Positions 1,085 through 64,000 of a stretch of 64,000 bases of DNA are shown here, in pieces (the first letter of the stretch is position 1; every line of letters starts with the position of its first letter). The stretch is taken from NCBI GenBank assembly GCA_963668425.1, contig OY764332.1, positions 188,943-252,942 on the forward strand, in the 5' to 3' direction. This DNA is from Minisyncoccota bacterium. GTDB lineage: Bacteria > Patescibacteriota > Minisyncoccia > Phycocordibacterales > JABAAK01. The translations under genes were made by a program, and so were the position numbers. The notes under the pieces were generated by a model, which was not told the DNA's origin, did not search any database, and saw nothing but the letters and a program-made list of their open reading frames with translations.

Positions 1085-3784
1085 CTATTCAACTACTATT
1101 GCTGTAGGGACGTTGCCAGAAGGAGTGTCACTGGAAGCGGGAAGGATGTTGCTATCACTGCTTTCTGTGGTAGTGTCTCTGGTGGTACTGCTTACTTCTT
1201 CAGTTCCTGCTGATGAATCTTGAGTGGGCACAGTTGGTGGTGCAGGAGGGGTGGTAGAAGTAGGAGGAGATGTACTATCTATAGCGACCACTATAGAAAG
1301 TAGCTCGAGTGCCTGTTGTAACAATGAAAGTGCCTCTTGGAGCCTTGCCTCTCGGAACTCTTCACTAGCTTGGATAGATGGATTTGACGTATTGACAATG
1401 ACTGATGAAGTCAGTAACGCGAAAGGAGAGGTTGCCATGAGATGAGAAAAGAAGTCATCAAGTGGTGGTGGTGTTCCTGTGTCTACTGAGAAGGTGGCAT
1501 TGAAGGATACCCCTCGTGCTTTGTCAGCGTTGTAATAATCGCCTGAGATAGCTACATATACCGCACCATCTTGTAGTGTATTCATCGGATTAATGGTTAT
1601 GGTCATGTTGTCATTGCTCATATTTGCTTCAAACGGTATGCCATATCCGTATACGTCATCGGTACGTAACACTACAAAACTTGCTAGGTCATTTGTAGTA
1701 AATAGTGTTTTATTGATATCTCTATATGCTGCTTGATTAAAGGTTATGGTAATGTTTACTGCATTGTCCTCAATAATTGTGCCATCTTCGGGAGTAGAAG
1801 TTACAACAAACCCTGTTGAAACTGCAATAGTGAATGTGTTAGTAGCTGTGGCACCCTGATTGTCAGCAGCATCGTAGTAGCCATTGCTTACAGCGACATA
1901 TACTGTACCATTTGCTAGGTCATTAGTCGGATCAATGGTAACCTTCGTGTTACCTGCATTTATGGAAGCGCTGAACGGAATGTCTGTTCCGTTTGCGTCA
2001 GTGCTTTTTAGTGTTATGAGGCCTGAGAGTGCAGTGGTGTCAAATGCTGTCTCGCTGGTGTCCTGATATATCGCTTCATCAAATGTAAGCACTACATCGG
2101 TACCTGCATCAACAACCGTAGCACCACTTACTGGAGAGAATGACACTGTTGGTGCGGTGGTGTCTGCTATTGGAACTGCAATAGTGAATGTGTTAGTAGC
2201 TGTGGCACCCTGATTGTCAGCAGCATCGTAGTAGCCATTGCTTACAGCGACATATACTGTACCATTTGCTAGGTCATTAGTCGGATCAATGGTAACCTTC
2301 GTGTTACCTGCATTTATGGAAGCGCTGAACGGAATGTCTGTTCCGTTTGCGTCAGTGCTTTTTAGTGTTATGAGGCCTGAGAGTGCAGTGGTGTCAAATG
2401 CTGTCTCGCTGGTGTCCTGATATATCGCTTCATCAAATGTAAGCACTACATCGGTACCTGCATCAACAACCGTAGCACCACTTACTGGAGAGAATGACAC
2501 TGTTGGTGCGGTGGTGTCTGCTATTGGAACTGCAATAGTGAATGTGTTAGTAGCTGTGGCACCCTGATTGTCAGCAGCATCGTAGTAGCCATTGCTTACA
2601 GCGACATATACTGTACCATTTGCTAGGTCATTAGTCGGATCAATGGTAACCTTCGTGTTACCTGCATTTATGGAAGCGCTGAACGGAATGTCTGTTCCGT
2701 TTGCGTCAGTGCTTTTTAGTGTTATGAGGCCTGAGAGTGCAGTGGTGTCAAATGCTGTCTCGCTGGTGTCCTGATATATCGCTTCATCAAATGTAAGCAC
2801 TACATCGGTACCTGCATCAACAACCGTAGCACCACTTACTGGAGAGAATGACACTGTTGGTGCGGTGGTGTCTGCTATTGGAACTGCAATAGTGAATGTG
2901 TTAGTAGCTGTGGCACCCTGATTGTCAGCAGCATCGTAGTAGCCATTGCTTACAGCGACATACACTGCACCATTTGCTAGGTCATTAGTCGGATCAATGG
3001 TAACCTTCGTGTTACCTGCATTTATGGAAGCGCTGAACGGAATGTCTGTTCCGTTTGCGTCAGTGCTTTTTAGTGTTATGAGGCCTGAGAGTGCAGTGGT
3101 GTCAAATGCTGTCTCGCTGGTGTCCTGATATATCGCTTCATCAAATGTAAGCACTACATCGGTACCTGCATCAACAACCGTAGCACCACTTACTGGAGAG
3201 AATGACACTGTTGGTGCGGTGGTGTCTGCAGGACCTACCGTAGGCACCACATCGGTACCTGAATTAATAACACCAACAACACCAACAGCACCATTTACTG
3301 GAGAGGGTAATGCCGTTGGTACGGCGGTGTCTACAGGTTCTACTACTGTAGCAATAGAGAAAATTGCGCTTGCAGCATCACCTTGCAAGCCATTTTTGTC
3401 ATAATACGCATCACTTATCGCAATATATACTGCCCCACCTGAAAGAGTGTCAGTCGGATCAATAGTAATTTCTGTGTTGCCTGCATCTATAGAAGCAGCG
3501 AACGGGATAGCGGTGCCGTCTGCATCGGTGGTGTGTAGTGAAACTACATTTTTAAGTGTTGTGTCAGTAAACACTCCTCCTTCAGCATCTACATACACTG
3601 CCCGATCAAATGAGATAGTAATAGTAGTATTTGCATCCTGCTCTACTGCATCCGCTGCAGGAGAAAATGAAGCATTGAAGTCAGCGGCGTATACAGAACT
3701 CACCATCACTAAGAACGACGCTGTGAAAGCAGCTATACCGATTACAATGGTATACAAACTCCTTGATATTTTTTTTGGTCTCAT
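1085..3784 (-). CDS. large secreted cell-surface protein with six Ig-like domains (SbsA/Big-like; S-layer- or adhesin-like), four of them near-identical
   Basis: ORF 1085..3841. The likely start is the internal Met at 3784 (MRPKKISRSLYTIVIGIAAFTASFLVMVSSVYA, a signal peptide). A ~118-aa unit (TAPTVSFSPVSGATVVDAGTDVVLTFDEAIYQDT...NTFTIAVPIAD) recurs four times, flanked by diverged copies. The C-terminal tail is PT-rich. Confidence 0.8.
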   Translation of the reverse strand: MRPKKISRSLYTIVIGIAAFTASFLVMVSSVYAADFNASFSPAADAVEQDANTTITISFDRAVYVDAEGGVFTDTTLKNVVSLHTTDADGTAIPFAASIDAGNTEITIDPTDTLSGGAVYIAISDAYYDKNGLQGDAASAIFSIATVVEPVDTAVPTALPSPVNGAVGVVGVINSGTDVVPTVGPADTTAPTVSFSPVSGATVVDAGTDVVLTFDEAIYQDTSETAFDTTALSGLITLKSTDANGTDIPFSASINAGNTKVTIDPTNDLANGAVYVAVSNGYYDAADNQGATATNTFTIAVPIADTTAPTVSFSPVSGATVVDAGTDVVLTFDEAIYQDTSETAFDTTALSGLITLKSTDANGTDIPFSASINAGNTKVTIDPTNDLANGTVYVAVSNGYYDAADNQGATATNTFTIAVPIADTTAPTVSFSPVSGATVVDAGTDVVLTFDEAIYQDTSETAFDTTALSGLITLKSTDANGTDIPFSASINAGNTKVTIDPTNDLANGTVYVAVSNGYYDAADNQGATATNTFTIAVPIADTTAPTVSFSPVSGATVVDAGTDVVLTFDEAIYQDTSETAFDTTALSGLITLKSTDANGTDIPFSASINAGNTKVTIDPTNDLANGTVYVAVSNGYYDAADNQGATATNTFTIAVSTGFVVTSTPEDGTIIEDNAVNITITFNQAAYRDINKTLFTTNDLASFVVLRTDDVYGYGIPFEANMSNDNMTITINPMNTLQDGAVYVAISGDYYNADKARGVSFNATFSVDTGTPPPLDDFFSHLMATSPFALLTSSVIVNTSNPSIQASEEFREARLQEALSLLQQALELLSIVVAIDSTSPPTSTTPPAPPTVPTQDSSAGTEEVSSTTRDTTTESSDSNILPASSDTPSGNVPTAIVVE
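1822..3237. repeat. 4 x 354-bp near-perfect tandem direct repeats inside the surface-protein gene
   Basis: Identical 60-aa shadow ORFs on the plus strand at 1884, 2238, 2592 and 2946 (period 354). Long identical DNA blocks such as ctgcaatagtgaatgtgttagtagctgtggcaccctgattgtcagcagcatcgtagtagcc recur at 1827, 2181, 2535 and 2889. Confidence 0.9.
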
Positions 3785-4011
3785 AAATATAATTAACGTA
3801 TAAAAGATAATAATGAAAATATCTGAACACAAAACACACACACCAGATATGTCTGTAGTGTACCAACATAAAATGCTTTATATTGCTTCCTATGGCGTAT
3901 TTTGTGTATAAGTCGTGGAAATATTAGAGCCCTTACTAGAATAGGGGAAGAAATCCTCAAACAAGTGGAAATATGCTGAAGGTGGGACGTATGTGGTGCT
4001 GTGTCGGGAGG

Positions 4012-4587
4012 TTATCCAAGCATTACCCCTTCCTGTTGTAGTACTGTCAATAGTGCTTGGAATACTTTTAAATGTAACTCCGCATCATATAGTGCTGAAT
4101 GTCGCTTTTCTTCTTCTTCTTCAATCCCCAATGCCTCCAATGTGCTACTCATCCCTGCCACACCCAATGCTGCCAGAGACAAGGTGGTGACATCCATCAT
4201 TCGGCGTGATAGTGGTAGTGCGGTATCATTCCGATAGGTGTCCCACAAACGCTCTAACATTATATAATCAAAATGCGCGTTTGCGGCGACGATGTGTAGT
4301 TCAATATCTTCAGCAATACCATACTGCTTCACGATTTCTTGCTCAAACTCTTTTAAGAAAACTTCTGGATTAACCCCATGTGTCTTTGCCTGTTCCATAC
4401 TGATGCCGTGTACCTCTTCTGCTGCACTATCCCATGAAAACCTCTCTGGCATATAGGTGATATTCCATTCTCGTGTGTTGACCGGCTGTATTTTTTCATC
4501 TAAAAATATTGCTCCACATTGAATCACTTGCGATGAGCAAAAATCTACGCCTGTTGATTCCACATCTAATGCTATAAATCTGTGCAT
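4012..4587 (-). CDS. DEDDh 3'-5' exonuclease (DnaQ / DNA pol III epsilon-like)
   Basis: The Exo I motif FIALDVESTG lies close to the N-terminus. The start was chosen at Met13 (MHRFIALDVE...) so it does not overlap proS. An acidic EEEEE stretch lies near the C-terminus. Confidence 0.7.
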   Translation of the reverse strand: MHRFIALDVESTGVDFCSSQVIQCGAIFLDEKIQPVNTREWNITYMPERFSWDSAAEEVHGISMEQAKTHGVNPEVFLKEFEQEIVKQYGIAEDIELHIVAANAHFDYIMLERLWDTYRNDTALPLSRRMMDVTTLSLAALGVAGMSSTLEALGIEEEEEKRHSALYDAELHLKVFQALLTVLQQEGVMLG

Positions 4588-4591
4588 ATAT

Positions 4592-5845
4592 CTATGATAT
4601 AGCGTGTAGTAACCCTTCAACAACGGTATCCAGCATTTTTTTCTCGTCTGTCGCCCGGTCTTTGTATTCTATTTTTCCTTCTGCGCATGTTTTCTCTGAT
4701 ACTATCAATTGTTGCGGAATACCGACAATATCACTCTCAGCGAATTTTTCTCCGGCAGATATGTTTCGATCATCGTACAGCACTTCAATCTTTCGCTCGG
4801 TTAGCTGTGTGTACACATCATCTGCTGCCTTTGCTACTGTATCAGAATTTCCTAATGCAATAAGATGCACATCAAACGGCGCGATACTTGCGGGCAACAC
4901 CATCCCTGTATCTGATCCAACCATCTCAACCACAACTCCGAGCAGTCGTGCTGGGCCGATGCCATATGATCCCATATACACTGGCACTTGAGTACCCGTG
5001 CCGTCTGTATATAGTAATCCAAGCGCGTCAGAAAACCGCATTCCGAGTGTGAAAATATTCCCCACCTCACACGCAGGATGTTCCTCAAGCTCCTCCCGTT
5101 GCAATTCCAGTCGTGCAAGCACTTCATCTGTATACACTTCTTTATTTAAAGCAATCTTTTTACCTTTGTGTACATAAATAACATCCTCACCCGCAGGCAC
5201 TATGGTTTGAAACTCGTCACTGAATTCAGAAAACGCTCCTCCGCTTGCAAATGTCCGATAGGTATTTTTGCCGATACCAACCCGTTCAAACACGCGCAGA
5301 TATGCTTCCGCGCATTGTTCATAAAACACCTTGTGTTGCTCTTCATCAGTGCAAAAAGAGTATAAATCTTTCATAATAAATTCTCGTGTTCGCAAGATCC
5401 CGCTCTTTGCTCGCTCTTCATTACGAAATTTTGTTTGAAACTGATACAAATAAAATGGCACATCACGATATGAGTTGACATGCTGTCGTGCCAAATCAGT
5501 AATCGGCTCTTCGTGCGTCCATCCAAGCCCTAATTCACCGCCAACTCGTAGCTGTGTCCGAAACCACACCTCATCGGCATCACCCTTCCACCGTCCTGAC
5601 TGCTCCCACACTTCTGGATTTTGTAACCCGTTCAGCAGTACTTCCTGCCCACCGATGCTGTCCATTTCTTCACGAATAATTTTGATAATCTTATTTAATG
5701 ACCGTAATCCAAGCGGTAGAAAACTATACACTCCTGCCATTGCCTTGTGGATGTACCCTGCCCGTATCAGTAGCTGTGCATTCAGTGCCATCTCATCAAC
5801 TGGCACTTCTTTTCGCACCCGTGTCGCCAAAAATGATTGTCGCAT
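4592..5845 (-). CDS. proS: proline--tRNA ligase (compact form, no large editing insertion)
   Basis: MRQSFLATRVRKEVPVDEMALNAQLLIRAGYIHKAMAGVYSFLPLG... matches the ProRS N-terminus. Class II motif 2 is FRNEERAKSGILRTREFIMKDLYSF. The ORF track starts 6 codons upstream at 5863. Confidence 0.85.
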   Translation of the reverse strand: MRQSFLATRVRKEVPVDEMALNAQLLIRAGYIHKAMAGVYSFLPLGLRSLNKIIKIIREEMDSIGGQEVLLNGLQNPEVWEQSGRWKGDADEVWFRTQLRVGGELGLGWTHEEPITDLARQHVNSYRDVPFYLYQFQTKFRNEERAKSGILRTREFIMKDLYSFCTDEEQHKVFYEQCAEAYLRVFERVGIGKNTYRTFASGGAFSEFSDEFQTIVPAGEDVIYVHKGKKIALNKEVYTDEVLARLELQREELEEHPACEVGNIFTLGMRFSDALGLLYTDGTGTQVPVYMGSYGIGPARLLGVVVEMVGSDTGMVLPASIAPFDVHLIALGNSDTVAKAADDVYTQLTERKIEVLYDDRNISAGEKFAESDIVGIPQQLIVSEKTCAEGKIEYKDRATDEKKMLDTVVEGLLHAIS

Positions 5846-59225: not shown

Positions 59226-59903
59226 CTATTGCAAAACGTCATTAAAGTGCATACTCACCCCTAGCCACATTTTTGACCTTTGCTTGTCGGTCATGGTGCT
59301 AAAGGTGAGCTTGTAGAACTCCATCTCCTTGGACAATGTCCCGGTTACAGTTGAGGTTTCTCCCTTCCAGACATTGACACCCAGGTTGCACGTCAGTATG
59401 TCTATTGAGACACCGACTCTAACCAAAAACAGTGATGTGTGAAGAGGGTTGTAATTATAGCCCCCGCTTATCCTTCCTTCCATCACTCTTCCTATCACTC
59501 TCCATTTCTTTACGACACTTAAGGACGAAGCAAGGTAATTCATTCCCTGCCCCTCCTCACCATCCATTACTTCAAGGACATTTTCTACTTCTACGGCGAT
59601 ATTGGTGCCGTATGTTCTTTTGAGGGCATTTGACCCTCGGAGCCCTTGAGACATTTCCCCTTCATAGGAGGAGTAACCGATGAGATCAACCCTCCCTAAT
59701 AGGAAGCTGGAAAATGCCTCCCCATCTACCTGCAGTCCCATACTTGTCTGCATGGACTGCTTTTGCACCTCAATTGGGTACTGTGGGTGCATAGAGCTGG
59801 ACCTTATTCCGATCCCTATACCTGTCCCTATACCTGTGGTTTGAGATTGAATGTCTGTTGCCACAAATGCCGTTATTATTAAACAAAAAAGTATTTGTTT
59901 CAT
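59226..59903 (-). CDS. secreted hypothetical protein (Gly-rich N-terminal region)
   Basis: AAGGAGAGAGAA SD before ATG at 59903. Signal peptide MKQILFCLIITAFVATDIQSQ, then TGIGTGIGIGI. Confidence 0.55.
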   Translation of the reverse strand: MKQILFCLIITAFVATDIQSQTTGIGTGIGIGIRSSSMHPQYPIEVQKQSMQTSMGLQVDGEAFSSFLLGRVDLIGYSSYEGEMSQGLRGSNALKRTYGTNIAVEVENVLEVMDGEEGQGMNYLASSLSVVKKWRVIGRVMEGRISGGYNYNPLHTSLFLVRVGVSIDILTCNLGVNVWKGETSTVTGTLSKEMEFYKLTFSTMTDKQRSKMWLGVSMHFNDVLQ

Positions 59904-60003
59904 TTCTCTCTCCTTAAAGATTTTGCTGGTATAAATTATACCATAAAACTGTATTTTTATCAAGTTACGTGTTACGTACATAATAGACGTATATACTGGT
60001 GGT

Positions 60004-60885
60004 ATGAGGTTTACTCAGGCAAAACACTTGTTTTTAGAGCACATTGAGCTTGGGCTCGGAAGATCACTGAAAACGGTAGAAAATTACGATCGCTATTTGA
60101 GTCACTTTGCTGATCTCGTCGGCATAGAACACATTGGGCAGATAACTGAGCCGGCAGTGCACACCTTTCGTCTTAAGCTTAATCGCAAAGGAGCACTTAA
60201 AAAAACTACGCAGAACTACTACCTTATCGCGTTGCGAATGTTTCTGAAATATCTTGAGACCACTGGAAGAGAATGCCTTTCACCGAATGCAGTGGTGTTG
60301 GCAAAAACCGGCACACGGGAAATAGATATTATCACTGCGGATGAATTACAGCGGCTGTTTGATGTCACGAATGGAAAAACTATACAAGAGTTGCGCGATC
60401 GTGCAATTATTGAAACCCTCTTTTCAACGGGCTTACGTGTTTCAGAGCTGACAACGCTTAAGCGGGATATTGATCTGACAGCAAAAGAGGTGGCGGTTCG
60501 TGGCAAGGGAGAGAAGGTGCGAGTGGTATTTTTTTCTGACCCTGCAATAGCGGCAATACATACCTACCGAGACAAGAGGGAGGATATGTCTCCGGCATTA
60601 TTTGTGGGACGAGATGGCAACGGACATCTTACTACTCGCACTATAGAGCGTATCATTGCTAATCGTGCACGGCAGGCGGGTATTTCAAAAAAGGTGACCC
60701 CACATATTCTTCGCCATATGTTTGCTACCACCCTTTTGTCAAATGGCGCGGATATTCGCTCGGTTCAGGAAATGCTTGGACATGCTAATATTCAAACTAC
60801 ACAGGTCTACACACACATTACCAACAAGCGACTCAAAGAGGTGCATAAAAACTTTCATCAGAAGCCGAGTGATATGAGGAAATAA
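60004..60885 (+). CDS. xerD: tyrosine recombinase XerC/XerD family
   Basis: C-terminal catalytic box HILRHMFATTLLSNGADIRSVQEMLGHANIQTTQVYTHI (R...HxxR...Y). Confidence 0.85.
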   Translation: MRFTQAKHLFLEHIELGLGRSLKTVENYDRYLSHFADLVGIEHIGQITEPAVHTFRLKLNRKGALKKTTQNYYLIALRMFLKYLETTGRECLSPNAVVLAKTGTREIDIITADELQRLFDVTNGKTIQELRDRAIIETLFSTGLRVSELTTLKRDIDLTAKEVAVRGKGEKVRVVFFSDPAIAAIHTYRDKREDMSPALFVGRDGNGHLTTRTIERIIANRARQAGISKKVTPHILRHMFATTLLSNGADIRSVQEMLGHANIQTTQVYTHITNKRLKEVHKNFHQKPSDMRK

Positions 60886-62000: not shown

Positions 62001-62081
62001 CCTTGTTTGAGTGCAGGGATTCTGCATTGGAAAAGAATGTTTCTTGAAATATTGTTAATGTAAGGTATACTGTAAGGTATT

Positions 62082-62345
62082 ATGGCAGATGTCTCAACAG
62101 AAAAAATAGAGGAAGAGGTGAGGGAGAATTACACTTTCTTCAAGAAAAATCTTCCTGAACTTATTAAGGAACATAGAGATAAGTTTCTTATCATACGTGA
62201 TAAGAAGGTTGAGGATGTTTGCGACACTGGCGAGGAGGCAATAGTAAAGGCAAAAGAAAAGTTTCCAGACGAATTATACTCAATCCAACAAGTTAGTGAG
62301 AGAGAAGTTGACCTCGGCTCTATATCAGCGTATGCCGTATTTTAA
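62082..62345 (+). CDS. small acidic hypothetical protein, translationally coupled to the downstream protease
   Basis: 87 aa, KFLIIRDKKVEDVCDTGEEAI. Its last 14 nt overlap the next start (gtATGccgtattttaa). Confidence 0.5.
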   Translation: MADVSTEKIEEEVRENYTFFKKNLPELIKEHRDKFLIIRDKKVEDVCDTGEEAIVKAKEKFPDELYSIQQVSEREVDLGSISAYAVF

Positions 62346-62859
62346 AGTACCACTGAAAGATAATAGATTTATTATACGATCGGTGATTTTAGACATTCGG
62401 TCATTATCACCTAAAGAGGTAAAATCTTATATTGAACGTGTTAATTTCGAGGGTGAGAACCGGTCCGTAGTGAGTGCACTTATTGACACTGGTGCTACTA
62501 ATTGCAGTATAACCGAAGATCTTGCAGAACGATTATGCCTAAAACCAACAGGGCAATGTACTGTTGGTACTGCTGGTCATCCGATAGAATGCAATCAATA
62601 TTTCATTCTTCTTGGTATACCAGTATCAGAAGTGTATGGAATGCAAAAAATTTATGATGAGAAAAGTGGTCAACAAAGAGAAGTTCCCTATGGTGTTACT
62701 CACTTTAAAGCACATTTTGCTCAGGTAAGCAGTATGCCGAAACAGGAAAAGGTAAGGGGTTTTGACGTTATTATTGGCATGGACCTTCTCGGAAAAATGA
62801 TTTTTCACTATTCAGGTAACCCTGCTACCTCTCAAGGGGAATTGACTATAGGATTTTAA
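62332..62859 (+). CDS. retropepsin-like aspartic protease (clan AA)
   Basis: SALIDTGATNCSITEDLAERL (a D-T/S-G-A active-site loop) and later VIIGMDLLGKM, a retropepsin flap/dimer region. Confidence 0.6.
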   Translation: MPYFKVPLKDNRFIIRSVILDIRSLSPKEVKSYIERVNFEGENRSVVSALIDTGATNCSITEDLAERLCLKPTGQCTVGTAGHPIECNQYFILLGIPVSEVYGMQKIYDEKSGQQREVPYGVTHFKAHFAQVSSMPKQEKVRGFDVIIGMDLLGKMIFHYSGNPATSQGELTIGF

Positions 62860-62911: not shown

Positions 62912-64000
62912 TCACCTTTTTTGTATGACTTTTAGGAAGGTGTCGTGCGATACTGTTACTCGTCCCGCTGCTCCCATTTTCTGTTTTCCCTTTTTTTGTT
63001 TTTCTCGCAGTTTCATTTTTCTGGTGATGTCACCACCGTAGAGTTTTGCTGTAACATCTTTGCGTAGAGCAGGTAAGGTTTTAGAGGCAACGATACGCCC
63101 ATCCATTTTTGCCTGTATTTTGATAACAAATAATGCTCTGGGTATTGTTTCATGCAGGATGTTTACCATATCCCGCGCTTCACGCTCACCTCGCAAACGC
63201 GATACAATACTTGCAAATGCTGGAAATTCTTCCTCAGCAAGCAGTATGTCCAGCCGTGTAACATCCGCTTCCCGCTGCCCTATCCGTTTGTATGAGAGTG
63301 ATGCGTATCCGGAACTCACACTTTTTAACCTGTCAAAAAACTGTCGCATCATTTCTCGCAATGGCATTTCACCCTGTACGATAAAGCGATTGTTTTTAAA
63401 ATCATTAACCTGTAGCACATATCCTTCATATTCCTGCAATAGTTGTGATACTGTTGGTACATATTCCGCAGGAGCAATAATGTCTACCGCCACCCACGGC
63501 TCGGCTACCGCTTTTATTTCGTGTGTATCAGGAAACTTGGATGGTGTTGCGATGATCACTGTCTCATCTTTTTTTGTTGTTACGGAAAAATCAGTGCTCG
63601 GTGCAGTGACTACCAGATCTATTCCTGCCTGTCTTCGTACCCGCTCGGTAATAATTTCAAAATGTAGCATTCCTAAAAATCCACACCGAAATCCTTTTCC
63701 CAGCGCTGTTGACCGCTCCTCTTCATATGAAAATGCTGCATCTGTTAACCGCATTTCCTGAAGAGCATGGTGTAGTGCGTTATACTCATTCGCATTTTGT
63801 GGGTAGAGTGATACCCATATTACCGGCACTGCCTCCTGATACCCAGGAAACGGTGGTGCATTTGAGCGGGCGTGGGCAATGGTATCACCGACAATCGCAA
63901 TGCCCGGCTCTTTAATACCTGTGGTGAAATAGCCGATCATTCCTTCTTGTATGGATTCGGTAGATACCATATCTGGCTTGAATATACCAACATCTTTCAG
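62912..64000 (-). CDS. lepA: elongation factor 4 (LepA), C-terminal ~360 aa (5' part beyond window end)
   Basis: GFRCGFLGMLHFEIITERVRRQ and the LepA-specific C-terminal domain. The reading frame stays open through 64000 (LKDVGIFKPDMVSTE). Confidence 0.85.
   Translation of the reverse strand: MKDVGIFKPDMVSTESIQEGMIGYFTTGIKEPGIAIVGDTIAHARSNAPPFPGYQEAVPVIWVSLYPQNANEYNALHHALQEMRLTDAAFSYEEERSTALGKGFRCGFLGMLHFEIITERVRRQAGIDLVVTAPSTDFSVTTKKDETVIIATPSKFPDTHEIKAVAEPWVAVDIIAPAEYVPTVSQLLQEYEGYVLQVNDFKNNRFIVQGEMPLREMMRQFFDRLKSVSSGYASLSYKRIGQREADVTRLDILLAEEEFPAFASIVSRLRGEREARDMVNILHETIPRALFVIKIQAKMDGRIVASKTLPALRKDVTAKLYGGDITRKMKLREKQKKGKQKMGAAGRVTVSHDTFLKVIQKR

Follow-up and report, generated by a model that had tools for sequence, protein, structure and literature searches.

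The small acidic protein with a DUF5678 fold and the retropepsin-like aspartic protease encoded directly downstream of it are a dedicated, obligate or near-obligate pair. The pair was analyzed in a 64,000-nucleotide window (the whole stretch of DNA under study), and the cassette is found in thousands of bacterial and archaeal genomes, apparently without having been described before. It most likely encodes a protease that is regulated by its own partner. The more specific reading, in which the partner inhibits the protease in the manner of a prosegment or an antitoxin, is tentative, and we give it slightly less than an even chance. The initial annotation had placed an 87-aa acidic ORF in a 14-nt overlap with a protease ORF, and both were recovered at 62082-62345 and 62332-62859; the protease length given there, 176 aa, counts the stop codon and becomes 175 aa. 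The reported location was also correct, with an xth-like gene (Exo_endo_phos) upstream and lepA downstream. The features of the locus are as follows.

62044..62071, + strand: promoter-like site TTGAAA, 16 nt, TATACT (10/12 matches; consensus match only)
62056..62079, + strand: two tandem 12-nt direct repeats TA(A/C)TGTAAGGTA, overlapping the -10-like hexamer
62082..62345, + strand: small partner gene (ORF1), 87 aa, acidic, DUF5678 fold
62310..62342, + strand: C-terminal tail of the small partner, residues 77-87 (LGSISAYAVF), proposed protease-binding strand
62332..62345, + strand: gene overlap ATGCCGTATTTTAA, 14 nt, site of translational coupling
62332..62859, + strand: retropepsin-like aspartic protease gene (ORF2), ATG at 62332, 175 aa
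62900..62927, + strand: terminator-like hairpin with T-run, after the protease gene and into the lepA 3' end

Assignment of ORF2 to the retropepsins, proposed earlier from its active-site loop, was borne out by profile and fold searches. Two clan AA profiles matched ORF2, its DTGA loop included, above their curated cutoffs: gag-asp_proteas with 31.5 bits (28.2 required) and Asp_protease_2 with 29.3 bits (24.3 required). The latter was the only positive among the profiles that had been suggested for an HMM check. Pfam RVP (PF00077) stayed below its cutoff (13.9 versus 20.7 bits), with residues 46-63 alone aligning, and ORF2 is a member of neither TIGR02281 clan_AA_DTGA (20.1 bits, cutoff 57.95) nor TIGR03698 clan_AA_DTGF (14.7 bits, cutoff 57.35). 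Members of the TIGR02281 family carry a transmembrane helix in their N-terminal region. In ORF2, neither a signal peptide nor a membrane-spanning segment was found (maximum Kyte-Doolittle value over 19 residues, 1.01), and the protease is therefore presumably cytoplasmic. A sequence search of solved structures gave no match for ORF2. The top PDB matches of its AF2 model (pLDDT 90.6) in Foldseek were all retropepsin-like, namely Rickettsia APRc 5c9f, AMV, HIV, and FIV proteases, and the Ddi1 RVP domain, with TM-scores that were modest (0.4-0.6) because of inserts. ORF2 is thus predicted by its model to be a single-lobe retropepsin fold, with three notable elements.

62476..62499, + strand: active-site loop ALIDTGAT, residues 49-56, with predicted catalytic Asp52
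62563..62601, + strand: probable flap hairpin VGTAGHPIECNQY, residues 78-90, by analogy with HIV protease
62776..62790, + strand: GMDLL motif, residues 149-153, corresponding to the retropepsin helix Gly-Arg/Met-Asp-x-Leu

The active-site loop opens the sequence ALIDTGATNCSITEDL (residues 49-64). Its residues A, L, D, T, G, A, and T are invariant in a cross-phylum alignment and I is nearly so; among 66 homologues, L, D, G, and A are invariant and I, T53, and T56 nearly invariant. The segment VIIGMDLLGKM (residues 146-156) had been called flap-like but is rather the Gly-Arg/Met-Asp helix motif. The model has a short helix at 150-153, G149 and L153 are invariant and D151 nearly invariant both in the cross-phylum alignment and among the 66 homologues, and VIIGMD (residues 146-151) provides the C-terminal hydrophobic-hydrophobic-Gly motif. 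The hairpin around VGTAGHPIECNQY is the more probable counterpart of the flap, by analogy with IGGIGGFIKVRQY of HIV protease. T80, A81, G82, P84, and C87 in this region are invariant in the close protease family. Strands were modeled at residues 74-78, 85-109, and 114-135, with a long clade-specific beta-hairpin insert following the probable flap and reaching to about residue 135. Proteases of the family begin with a conserved Met-Pro N-terminus.

The ORF1 product has a pI of 4.73 and a net charge of -7. It matched Pfam DUF5678 at 27.2 bits (cutoff 23.2) over profile positions 1-47 of 49. Its AF2 model (pLDDT 78) consists of a helix (residues 6-31), two strands (35-39 and 42-47), a second helix (50-60), and a further strand (67-70), a predicted fold similar to that of viral proteins annotated as DUF5678. 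Neither sequence nor fold searches found relatives of ORF1 among solved structures, and the fold search recognized no DNA-binding domain and no substrate-binding fold. Only six of 15 cross-phylum partners reached E<0.01 with the DUF5678 profile, suggesting that the partner family is mostly a divergent extension of DUF5678. Within the window's own clade, dN/dS of ORF1 was 0.08. The Pfam scores, purifying selection, and the many homologues that keep the arrangement put both ORFs beyond chance.

Conservation of the two-gene arrangement had been named as a check on the proposed tight coupling, and the small gene was found with protease homologues across phyla, in some cases even fused to them. All 17 family loci on genome contigs with upstream sequence, from Gammaproteobacteria, Spirochaetes, Chloroflexi, Poribacteria, Bacteroidota, CPR, and Micrarchaeota, had a small homologue directly upstream of the protease. 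The same was true for 68 of 74 protease loci on metagenome or viral contigs, and the other six belong to other retropepsin subfamilies. The pairing spans many bacterial phyla, DPANN archaea, and a few viral contigs. Conversely, seven of seven sampled small-protein homologues (six single-domain and one tandem-domain) were followed by a protease or a protease remnant. At 90% identity, the proteases recovered by a word-limited search formed 2383 clusters. For the partner, 5873 similar representatives at 50% identity were recovered by an exhaustive search (E<=1e-3), 1462 of them at E<=1e-10. Two natural fusions (P0260 and P0264) have the layout small-small-protease-TM. Tandem small-small proteins made up about 20 of the top 150 representatives, and for one of them the protease was the next gene, with a 13-nt overlap; a tandem layout would suit a two-fold symmetric dimer. 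An apparent loss of the protease at L120 was a gene-calling miss, the protease gene being intact, and L022 and L023 from the genome scan were discarded as unrelated multi-domain or retrotransposon proteins.

The assigned protease start overlapped the small gene in 50 of 66 distinct metagenome pairs, most often by 14 nt (20 pairs), followed by 4 nt (10 pairs) and 26 nt (eight pairs), and the -14 overlap occurs in several phyla. Translation through such an overlap would produce the partner first and in at least equal amounts. An upstream ORF followed by a protease in another frame also recalls the gag-pro order, and the overlap in the window contains TTT TAA A, at which a +1 slip of tRNA-Phe would enter the protease frame. 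The two genes might by this token be a remnant or analogue of a retroelement Gag-Pro whose ORFs are joined by programmed frameshifting, a reading that we regard as highly improbable. The frame relation varies by clade (overlaps of -14, -4, -1, 0, and +1), the T-run is not conserved even in the CPR clade (L004 has TCT TAA), the protease has its own ATG with the conserved Met-Pro start, and the surveyed neighborhoods contained no reverse transcriptase or integrase. We therefore do not regard programmed +1 frameshifting at TTT TAA A as a general trait of the family, the shifty stop not being conserved.

The promoter-like site lies directly upstream of the small gene, and a homologous pair (L001) has a similar TTGAAG...TATA element upstream. 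The second copy of the 12-nt repeat also contains AAGG, which resembles a Shine-Dalgarno element and lies 6 nt upstream of the small-gene ATG; one may speculate from their position that the tandem repeats form an operator. At the other end, the convergent lepA ORF ends at 62912, within the terminator-like element. Cassette neighborhoods were variable and mostly unrelated between loci, indicating that the cassette is autonomous and mobile. The two genes would then travel horizontally as a unit with their own promoter-like and terminator-like signals.

In a Poribacteria-like clade, the cassette is located between hsdS and hsdR in type I restriction-modification operons, and two of its loci (L031/L032) have hsdS upstream and ABC-transporter genes downstream. 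Five independent lesions of the protease were found in this clade (an internal deletion, a frameshift, a duplication with frameshift, a nonsense mutation, and a whole-gene deletion), whereas the small gene had no lesion. Elsewhere in the family, two deletion chimeras (P0296 and P0249) are without the active site. The asymmetry is not statistically strong, since it would have a probability of 0.63^5, about 0.1, if each lesion hit one or the other gene in proportion to its length, and the lesion-bearing assemblies are in part low-coverage long-read assemblies. Both genes had dN/dS of about 0.1-0.4 in this clade, and values for the small gene were 0.13-0.44 despite repeated destruction or deletion of the protease. 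Restriction-modification embedding was limited to the Poribacteria-like clade. A general association with defense islands was rejected: 131 neighbor proteins from 33 metagenome or viral loci showed no defense enrichment, most were housekeeping proteins, and no families recurred other than glycosyltransferases, kinases, and the like. The PADLOC profile PDC-M08B matched the window protease weakly (E 4.5e-4) in the active-site region and 26 of 66 family proteases (best E 8.6e-6), and PDC-M08A matched none of the 66 small proteins. Searches of curated plasmids by tblastn with the window and L030 proteases and of curated phages with the L030 protease gave no match, and PHROGs gave insignificant matches only. 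A literature search on DUF5678, PDC-M08, and retropepsins with toxin-antitoxin, anti-phage, or type I restriction terms found nothing relevant.

The cassette may represent a new toxin-antitoxin or abortive-infection class in which a DUF5678-fold antitoxin holds a cytoplasmic retropepsin-like protease inactive by placing its C-terminal tail, as a pseudo-substrate, in the active-site cleft or by blocking dimerization. We consider this specific form possible but rather doubtful. Degradation or cleavage of the partner, as might occur during phage infection, would free the protease. A constitutive role as regulator or adaptor would account equally well for the covalent fusions and for the persistence of the cassette in reduced CPR genomes.

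Such a role is the core of a second explanation, that of a two-component protease: a constitutive cytoplasmic enzyme with the DUF5678 protein as its adaptor subunit, which would activate it or recruit its substrates. The near-obligate co-occurrence and coupling of the genes would be expected of such subunits, the small-small-protease fusions place the small domains N-terminally, like targeting domains ahead of an RVP domain, and the cassette is kept in small CPR genomes amid housekeeping genes. Characterized bacterial A2 peptidases likewise involve other protein factors for activation (PMC11957791). The fold search described above, however, recognized no substrate-binding fold in the partner, and the variable contexts and patchy distribution would be unusual for a core proteostasis factor. 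In addition, an adaptor should decay along with its protease, whereas the small gene of the Poribacteria-like clade stays intact. We consider this explanation unlikely. The arrangement would be comparable to Ddi1 with its UBL/HDD domains or to RimB, which depends on partners.

The C-terminal tail of the small partner bears on how the two proteins may interact. Residues 77-87 have pLDDT below 50 and are predicted to be disordered when the protein is alone. The tail is strand-like and strongly conserved inside each clade, with clade-specific motifs. The pattern is often aromatic-Pro followed by alternating hydrophobic residues, such as VS[YF]PALTVGxINV, another tail motif is QN[YF]-TSNLIKIGV, and the CPR clade that includes the window has VDLGSISAYAVF, without the aromatic-Pro motif. 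The aromatic-Pro tails are reminiscent of retroviral Phe/Tyr-Pro cleavage sites. Retropepsins prefer cleavage sites of the aromatic-Pro type. The small protein might be a dedicated substrate or precursor, cut at the conserved aromatic-Pro/Thr site in its tail. The cut would set free either a matured core protein or a hydrophobic peptide of short length from the C-terminus. Both VS[YF]-PALTVG and QN[YF]-TSNLIKIGV are similar to retropepsin sites, and the tail, being predicted to be disordered, would be accessible. Against such an enzyme-substrate pair, which we judge improbable, tails of the window's own CPR clade lack aromatic-Pro, the motif is internal and repeated in fusions, and the small gene outlasts loss of the protease. 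Neighborhood surveys also found no conserved maturation, export, or modification genes near the cassettes.

In the Micrarchaeota locus L024, a TAT-to-TAG nonsense codon deletes the tail of the small protein beside an intact protease. Such a loss is hard to reconcile with an antitoxin that depends on its tail, except if the stop is a sequencing error or the L024 protease is inactive; a two-component protease would tolerate it.

Inhibitor, substrate, and toxin-antitoxin-like partner, all raised in the initial annotation, are the right shortlist, and the evidence leans to an inhibitory or regulatory partner. Inhibition is favored by the obligate pairing and coupling, the fusions, the conserved tail, the weak PDC-M08B matches, and a population pattern of variable contexts and protease lesions; the housekeeping neighbors and the absence of matches for the queried proteases in the curated plasmid and phage collections weigh against it. 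On the inhibitory reading, the protease would be soluble and cytoplasmic and active only as a homodimer to which each subunit contributes Asp52, since other single-domain clan AA enzymes behave so. The partner would bind it through the conserved strand-like tail and act as a prosegment in trans or as a protein antitoxin; we infer the direction of this regulation. The tail may occupy the substrate cleft as a pseudo-substrate, or it may cap the terminal-strand dimer interface. The protease would act only once the partner is removed, cleaved, or outnumbered.

Few prokaryotes are as yet reported to have known clan AA proteases (PMC11957791). Those that have been characterized are membrane-bound, periplasmic, or tied to RimK. 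The present analysis defines a large, apparently undescribed family of predicted soluble retropepsin-like proteases with a DUF5678-fold partner, and it gives DUF5678 a first functional context. The pair offers a simple two-protein system for the study of retropepsin regulation in trans. If the inhibitory or toxin-antitoxin-like reading is true, aspartic proteases would join the toxin or defense effectors.

Several known systems resemble the cassette in part. The best structural match of the ORF2 model was APRc (RC1339) of Rickettsia conorii (5c9f/5c9b; Foldseek E 2e-4), a single-domain bacterial retropepsin-like enzyme that dimerizes and is capable of autoprocessing, with activity dependent on the catalytic Asp (PMC4140852). 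APRc shares only 12-17% identity with the window protease. It is embedded in the outer membrane, where it processes autotransporters, and has no reported DUF5678 partner, whereas the window protease is predicted to be soluble and is paired with a small upstream gene. RimB of the Pseudomonas RimABK system is a cytoplasmic retropepsin-like protease with partners in the same operon, and a natural RimB-RimK hybrid exists (PMC11957791). RimB and the cassette family have in common a retropepsin-like protease that is, or presumably is, cytoplasmic, an operon partner, and natural partner fusions, but the partners of RimB are RimK (a glutamate ligase) and RimA rather than a DUF5678 protein, and its substrate is polyglutamylated RpsF. 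No rimK-like gene was found near the window pair or its homologues. Ddi1/Ddi2 combine the retropepsin fold with N-terminal accessory domains, as do the small-small-protease fusions; they are eukaryotic, and their UBL/HDD/UBA domains are unrelated to DUF5678.

Type II toxin-antitoxin systems are similar in gene organization, with two small, co-directional, overlapping genes of which the putative protective one comes first. The window genes are likewise adjacent, coupled, and travel together through variable contexts, and the family shares with these systems a patchy distribution, insertion into restriction-modification operons, and preferential decay of the second gene. Recurrent inactivation of the protease beside an intact small gene is indirect evidence for a toxic second product neutralized by the first, with the tail loss in L024 as a counterexample. 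In the fold search, the window partner showed no recognizable DNA-binding domain. To our knowledge, no aspartic protease is known as a toxin of such a system, and none was found in the literature. PDC-M08 is itself only a PADLOC candidate defense system, for which no publication was found; the profile of its protein B matches family proteases weakly, and its A and B were not seen side by side.

The HIV-1 protease is directly preceded by p6*, whose C-terminus abuts the N-terminal Pro of the protease at an F/P site; peptides of p6* are inhibitors of the enzyme in vitro (PMC4451514). The likeness to the cassette lies in a short upstream polypeptide, in the Met-Pro start of the family proteases, and in the aromatic-Pro tails of many partners. 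Unlike the window partner, which is separately translated and predicted to be folded, p6* is unstructured, covalently part of Gag-Pol until freed by autoprocessing, and not homologous to DUF5678. The cassette is a possible prokaryotic, trans-acting parallel to the retroviral p6*/protease zymogen control.

The cassette comprises a small gene and a protease gene that overlap by 14 nt, as the initial annotation described; its figure of 176 aa for the protease counts the stop codon, and the protein has 175 residues. Placement between xth and lepA was confirmed: an Exo_endo_phos (xth-like) gene and an Xer-type tyrosine recombinase gene lie upstream, with rpsO and pnp further upstream, and the 3' part of lepA lies downstream on the opposite strand. 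The features are as follows.

59226-59981, reverse strand: ORF of 251 aa between rpsO and the recombinase gene, with no Pfam match and a signal-peptide-like N-terminal region (MKQILFCLIITAFVATDIQSQ)
60004-60885: Xer-type tyrosine recombinase gene, 1.2 kb 5' of the cassette
62056-62079: direct repeat of 12 nt in two tandem copies, TA(A/C)TGTAAGGTA, which overlap the -10-like hexamer of the promoter-like site preceding the small gene
62082-62345, forward strand: small gene, encoding an acidic protein of 87 aa (pI 4.73)
62332-62859, forward strand: protease gene, 176 codons including the stop

The recombinase is probably the chromosomal Xer and not part of a mobile element, since the recombinase-xth-pair-lepA order is also kept at the homologous locus L036. 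A promoter-like site (10/12 matches) directly precedes the small gene, and a terminator-like hairpin lies 3' of the protease gene. The tandem repeats may serve as an operator or may just reflect duplication of an SD-like AAGG element; upstream of the homologous small gene at L001 there is a related GTAAGGGTATG.

The window protease passes the Pfam cutoffs for gag-asp_proteas (31.5 bits vs 28.2) and Asp_protease_2 (29.3 bits vs 24.3) and falls below those for RVP (13.9 vs 20.7), TIGR02281 (20.1 vs 57.95), and TIGR03698 (14.7 vs 57.35). Of the profiles suggested initially, only Asp_protease_2 was thus matched, and the protein is a member of Pfam Asp_protease_2/gag-asp_proteas, clan AA, outside the other three families. 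No hydrophobic segment was found in either window protein. For the AlphaFold2 model (alignment of 66 homologues; pLDDT 90.6, pTM 0.81), the top Foldseek matches in the PDB were exclusively retropepsin-type structures: Rickettsia APRc (5c9f/5c9b), avian, feline, and human retroviral proteases, and Ddi1 RVP domains. Judged from the motifs A-L-I-D-T-G-A-T and G-(M/R)-D-x-L, invariant or nearly so among homologues across phyla, the protease is probably catalytically competent. The segment VIIGMDLLGKM, first read as flap-like, instead forms a short helix at residues 150-153 of the model and corresponds to the Gly-Arg-Asn helix in HIV protease; a hairpin at about residues 78-90 is a likelier candidate for the flap. 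The model of the window protease also contains a long beta-hairpin (residues 85-135) that is additional in its clade.

The two-gene arrangement is conserved, with a small homologue upstream of the protease across phyla. Close relatives formed 16 clusters of CPR bacteria, one named Candidatus Kaiserbacteria and several from sponge metagenomes. These relatives retain the small gene, with a 14-nt overlap at L001, L004, and L036 and a longer one, by the gene caller's starts, at L037. A relative at 81% identity has the xth/lepA context in common with the window, and relatives at 46-60% identity adjoin Fic/Sua5, IF-2, or a tRNA synthetase; the cassette therefore moves between genomic contexts. A scan of genome contigs located distant protease homologues in Gammaproteobacteria, Spirochaetaceae/Treponema, Dehalococcoidia, Poribacteria, Chitinophagales, and Micrarchaeota, and a homologous small ORF lay directly upstream at every family locus with upstream sequence. 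The scan of metagenome contigs gave 74 loci (72 metagenome, 2 viral) with 250 nt or more of upstream sequence; in 68 of these the small-protein HMM matched directly upstream, and the remaining six are other retropepsin subfamilies. The commonest overlaps among 66 distinct pairs were -14 nt (20 pairs), -4 (10), and -26 (8). Conversely, seven small-protein homologues chosen independently of the protease (six with a single domain and one with a tandem domain) all had a protease or its remnant 3' of them. An exhaustive search with the small-protein profile returned 5873 representatives at 50% identity, 1462 of them at E<=1e-10. The protease profile, in a word-limited search, returned at least 2383 clusters at 90% identity, nearly all unnamed or "hypothetical" and most without a precomputed Pfam match. 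A dedicated two-protein system is established; the direction of regulation is what we infer below. Two high-G+C IMG/VR viral contigs (L038/L039, 4478-5360) carry the pair with a 14-nt overlap and a GTG protease start. The Chitinophagales protease homologue (L020, 1079-1711) is extended C-terminally, and the extension terminates in a SEC-C-like Cys/His motif (CPCGSDLKYKRCHGK).

At the overlap (62335-62348), the small-gene frame reads GTA TTT TAA A. Slippage of tRNA-Phe by +1 on the T-run, at the stop codon, would shift translation into the protease frame, producing a ~29-kDa fusion. This motif is kept at L036, L001, and L037 (as CTT TAA A) and not at L004 (TCT TAA). That the pair is a Gag-Pro-like frameshift unit is extremely improbable, because frames are inconsistent between pairs and the shifty stop is not conserved.

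The window small protein passes the curated Pfam cutoff for DUF5678 (27.2 bits vs 23.2). Its model (pLDDT 78) contains a long N-terminal helix, a beta-hairpin, a helix, and a third strand, with pLDDT below 50 at residues 77-87. The C-terminal 10-15 residues are predicted to be disordered, yet are strongly conserved within clades.

Conserved tails of the small protein, by clade
Largest clade: D/E-x-x-V-S-(Y/F)-P-A-L-T-V-G-x-I-N-V (Pro and Gly invariant)
Micrarchaeota-type clade: E-E-V-E-Q-T-Q-N-(Y/F)-T-S-N-L-I-K-I-G-V
Poribacteria type: I-R-F-M-P-S-L-V-R
CPR clade of the window: V-D-L-G-S-I-S-A-Y-A-V-F
Treponema: E-Y-F-N-N-A-V-x-F-A

Conservation of a disordered, strand-like tail points to a linear binding motif, the most parsimonious target of which would be the co-encoded protease. 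Retropepsins classically cleave at aromatic-Pro dipeptides, and Met-Pro is the N-terminus of family proteases. The HIV-1 protease is directly preceded by the transframe peptide p6*, which terminates at an F/P site and acts as an inhibitor of the protease in vitro (PMC4451514). The small protein might instead be a substrate or precursor of the protease, which we consider improbable.

Both domains also occur in single polypeptides. In two database representatives, P0260 (385 aa) and P0264 (376 aa), a pair of DUF5678-like domains is joined through a linker to a protease domain, which matches the family HMM at E 1e-22 and 3e-15, respectively, and a transmembrane helix lies at the C-terminus; precomputed Pfam matches of P0260 are DUF5678, Asp_protease_2, and gag-asp_proteas. 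The P0260 gene (L122, 3001-4158) lies in a block of small co-directional genes, possibly a prophage, with a weak phage depolymerase match. Tandem duplications of the small domain occur in ~20 of the top 150 representatives, including P0280, whose gene is followed by a protease gene with a 13-nt overlap; a tandem partner would suit a two-fold symmetric protease homodimer. P0296 and P0249 are deletion chimeras in which the small core is joined to the protease C-terminus and the active site is gone. At L120, a tandem-domain partner and a protease (2067-2702 and 3720-4157) adjoin a gene encoding a Shedu SduA_C domain; in the protease D-T-G is replaced by D-T-A (LLDTASD), and most of its ORF was missed by the gene caller.

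Among 127 neighbor proteins at 18 genome loci, the only recurrent families were type I restriction-modification (R-M) subunits, all from Poribacteria, transposases, Fic, and AAA_15/AAA_21 ATPases. Defense enrichment was absent among 131 neighbors at 33 metagenome/viral loci. Neither set contained a conserved third gene, and the cassette is therefore self-contained. In sponge-associated Poribacteria-like genomes it usually sits inside a type I R-M operon, between hsdS and hsdR (L011-L013, L025-L029, L033); at L031/L032 hsdS is upstream but ABC-transporter genes are downstream. The small gene is intact in 11/11 such loci compared, and the protease has suffered five independent lesions, each different in kind (low-coverage L027 left out of the count).

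Protease lesions in the Poribacteria-like clade
L025: internal deletion of the active site
L028/L029: frameshift
L031: duplication with frameshift
L032: nonsense codon just after DTGATHTAIR
L033: complete deletion

Some lesions are recent, because the adjoining small genes match others in the clade exactly (L025/L026, L031/L032) or almost exactly (L028/L011). The asymmetry is suggestive and not statistically strong (about 0.1 by gene length). A counter-example is the Micrarchaeota locus L024, where the codon for the conserved Tyr in the tail of the small protein (4917-4919) has changed from TAT to TAG, removing YTSNLIKIGV, and the protease is intact; the TAG may reflect a true polymorphism or a sequencing error, or may be read through. 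Such a tail-less partner beside an intact protease favors an activating or adaptor subunit, for which partner-dependent bacterial retropepsins provide precedent (PMC11957791), although we regard this role as rather unlikely.

We tentatively propose, with somewhat less than even confidence, that the partner would inhibit the protease, either as a prosegment supplied in trans or as a protein antitoxin. Inhibition best accounts together for the partner-first gene order and coupling, a tail that is conserved and resembles a pseudo-substrate, the N-terminal placement of partner domains in fusions, the movement of the cassette, including into an R-M operon, and the preferential loss of the protease. 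In aspartic protease zymogens, the prosegment is likewise N-terminal.

The structurally closest characterized enzyme, APRc of Rickettsia, is membrane-embedded with no such partner reported (PMC4140852), whereas the window protease lacks a hydrophobic segment and is paired with a DUF5678 protein. RimB is closest in logic, being cytoplasmic, partner-dependent, and sometimes fused, but its partners are unrelated to the DUF5678 partner (PMC11957791). The PADLOC candidate PDC-M08B is a weak relative of the protease, and its partner profile is unmatched by the small proteins. In the open-access literature we found neither DUF5678 in this context nor a link of retropepsins with toxin-antitoxin or defense systems. 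Given the known family membership, the unrelated partners of known systems, and the lack of a literature link, what is new here is a retropepsin-like protease with an obligate new partner family and toxin-antitoxin-like genomic behavior.
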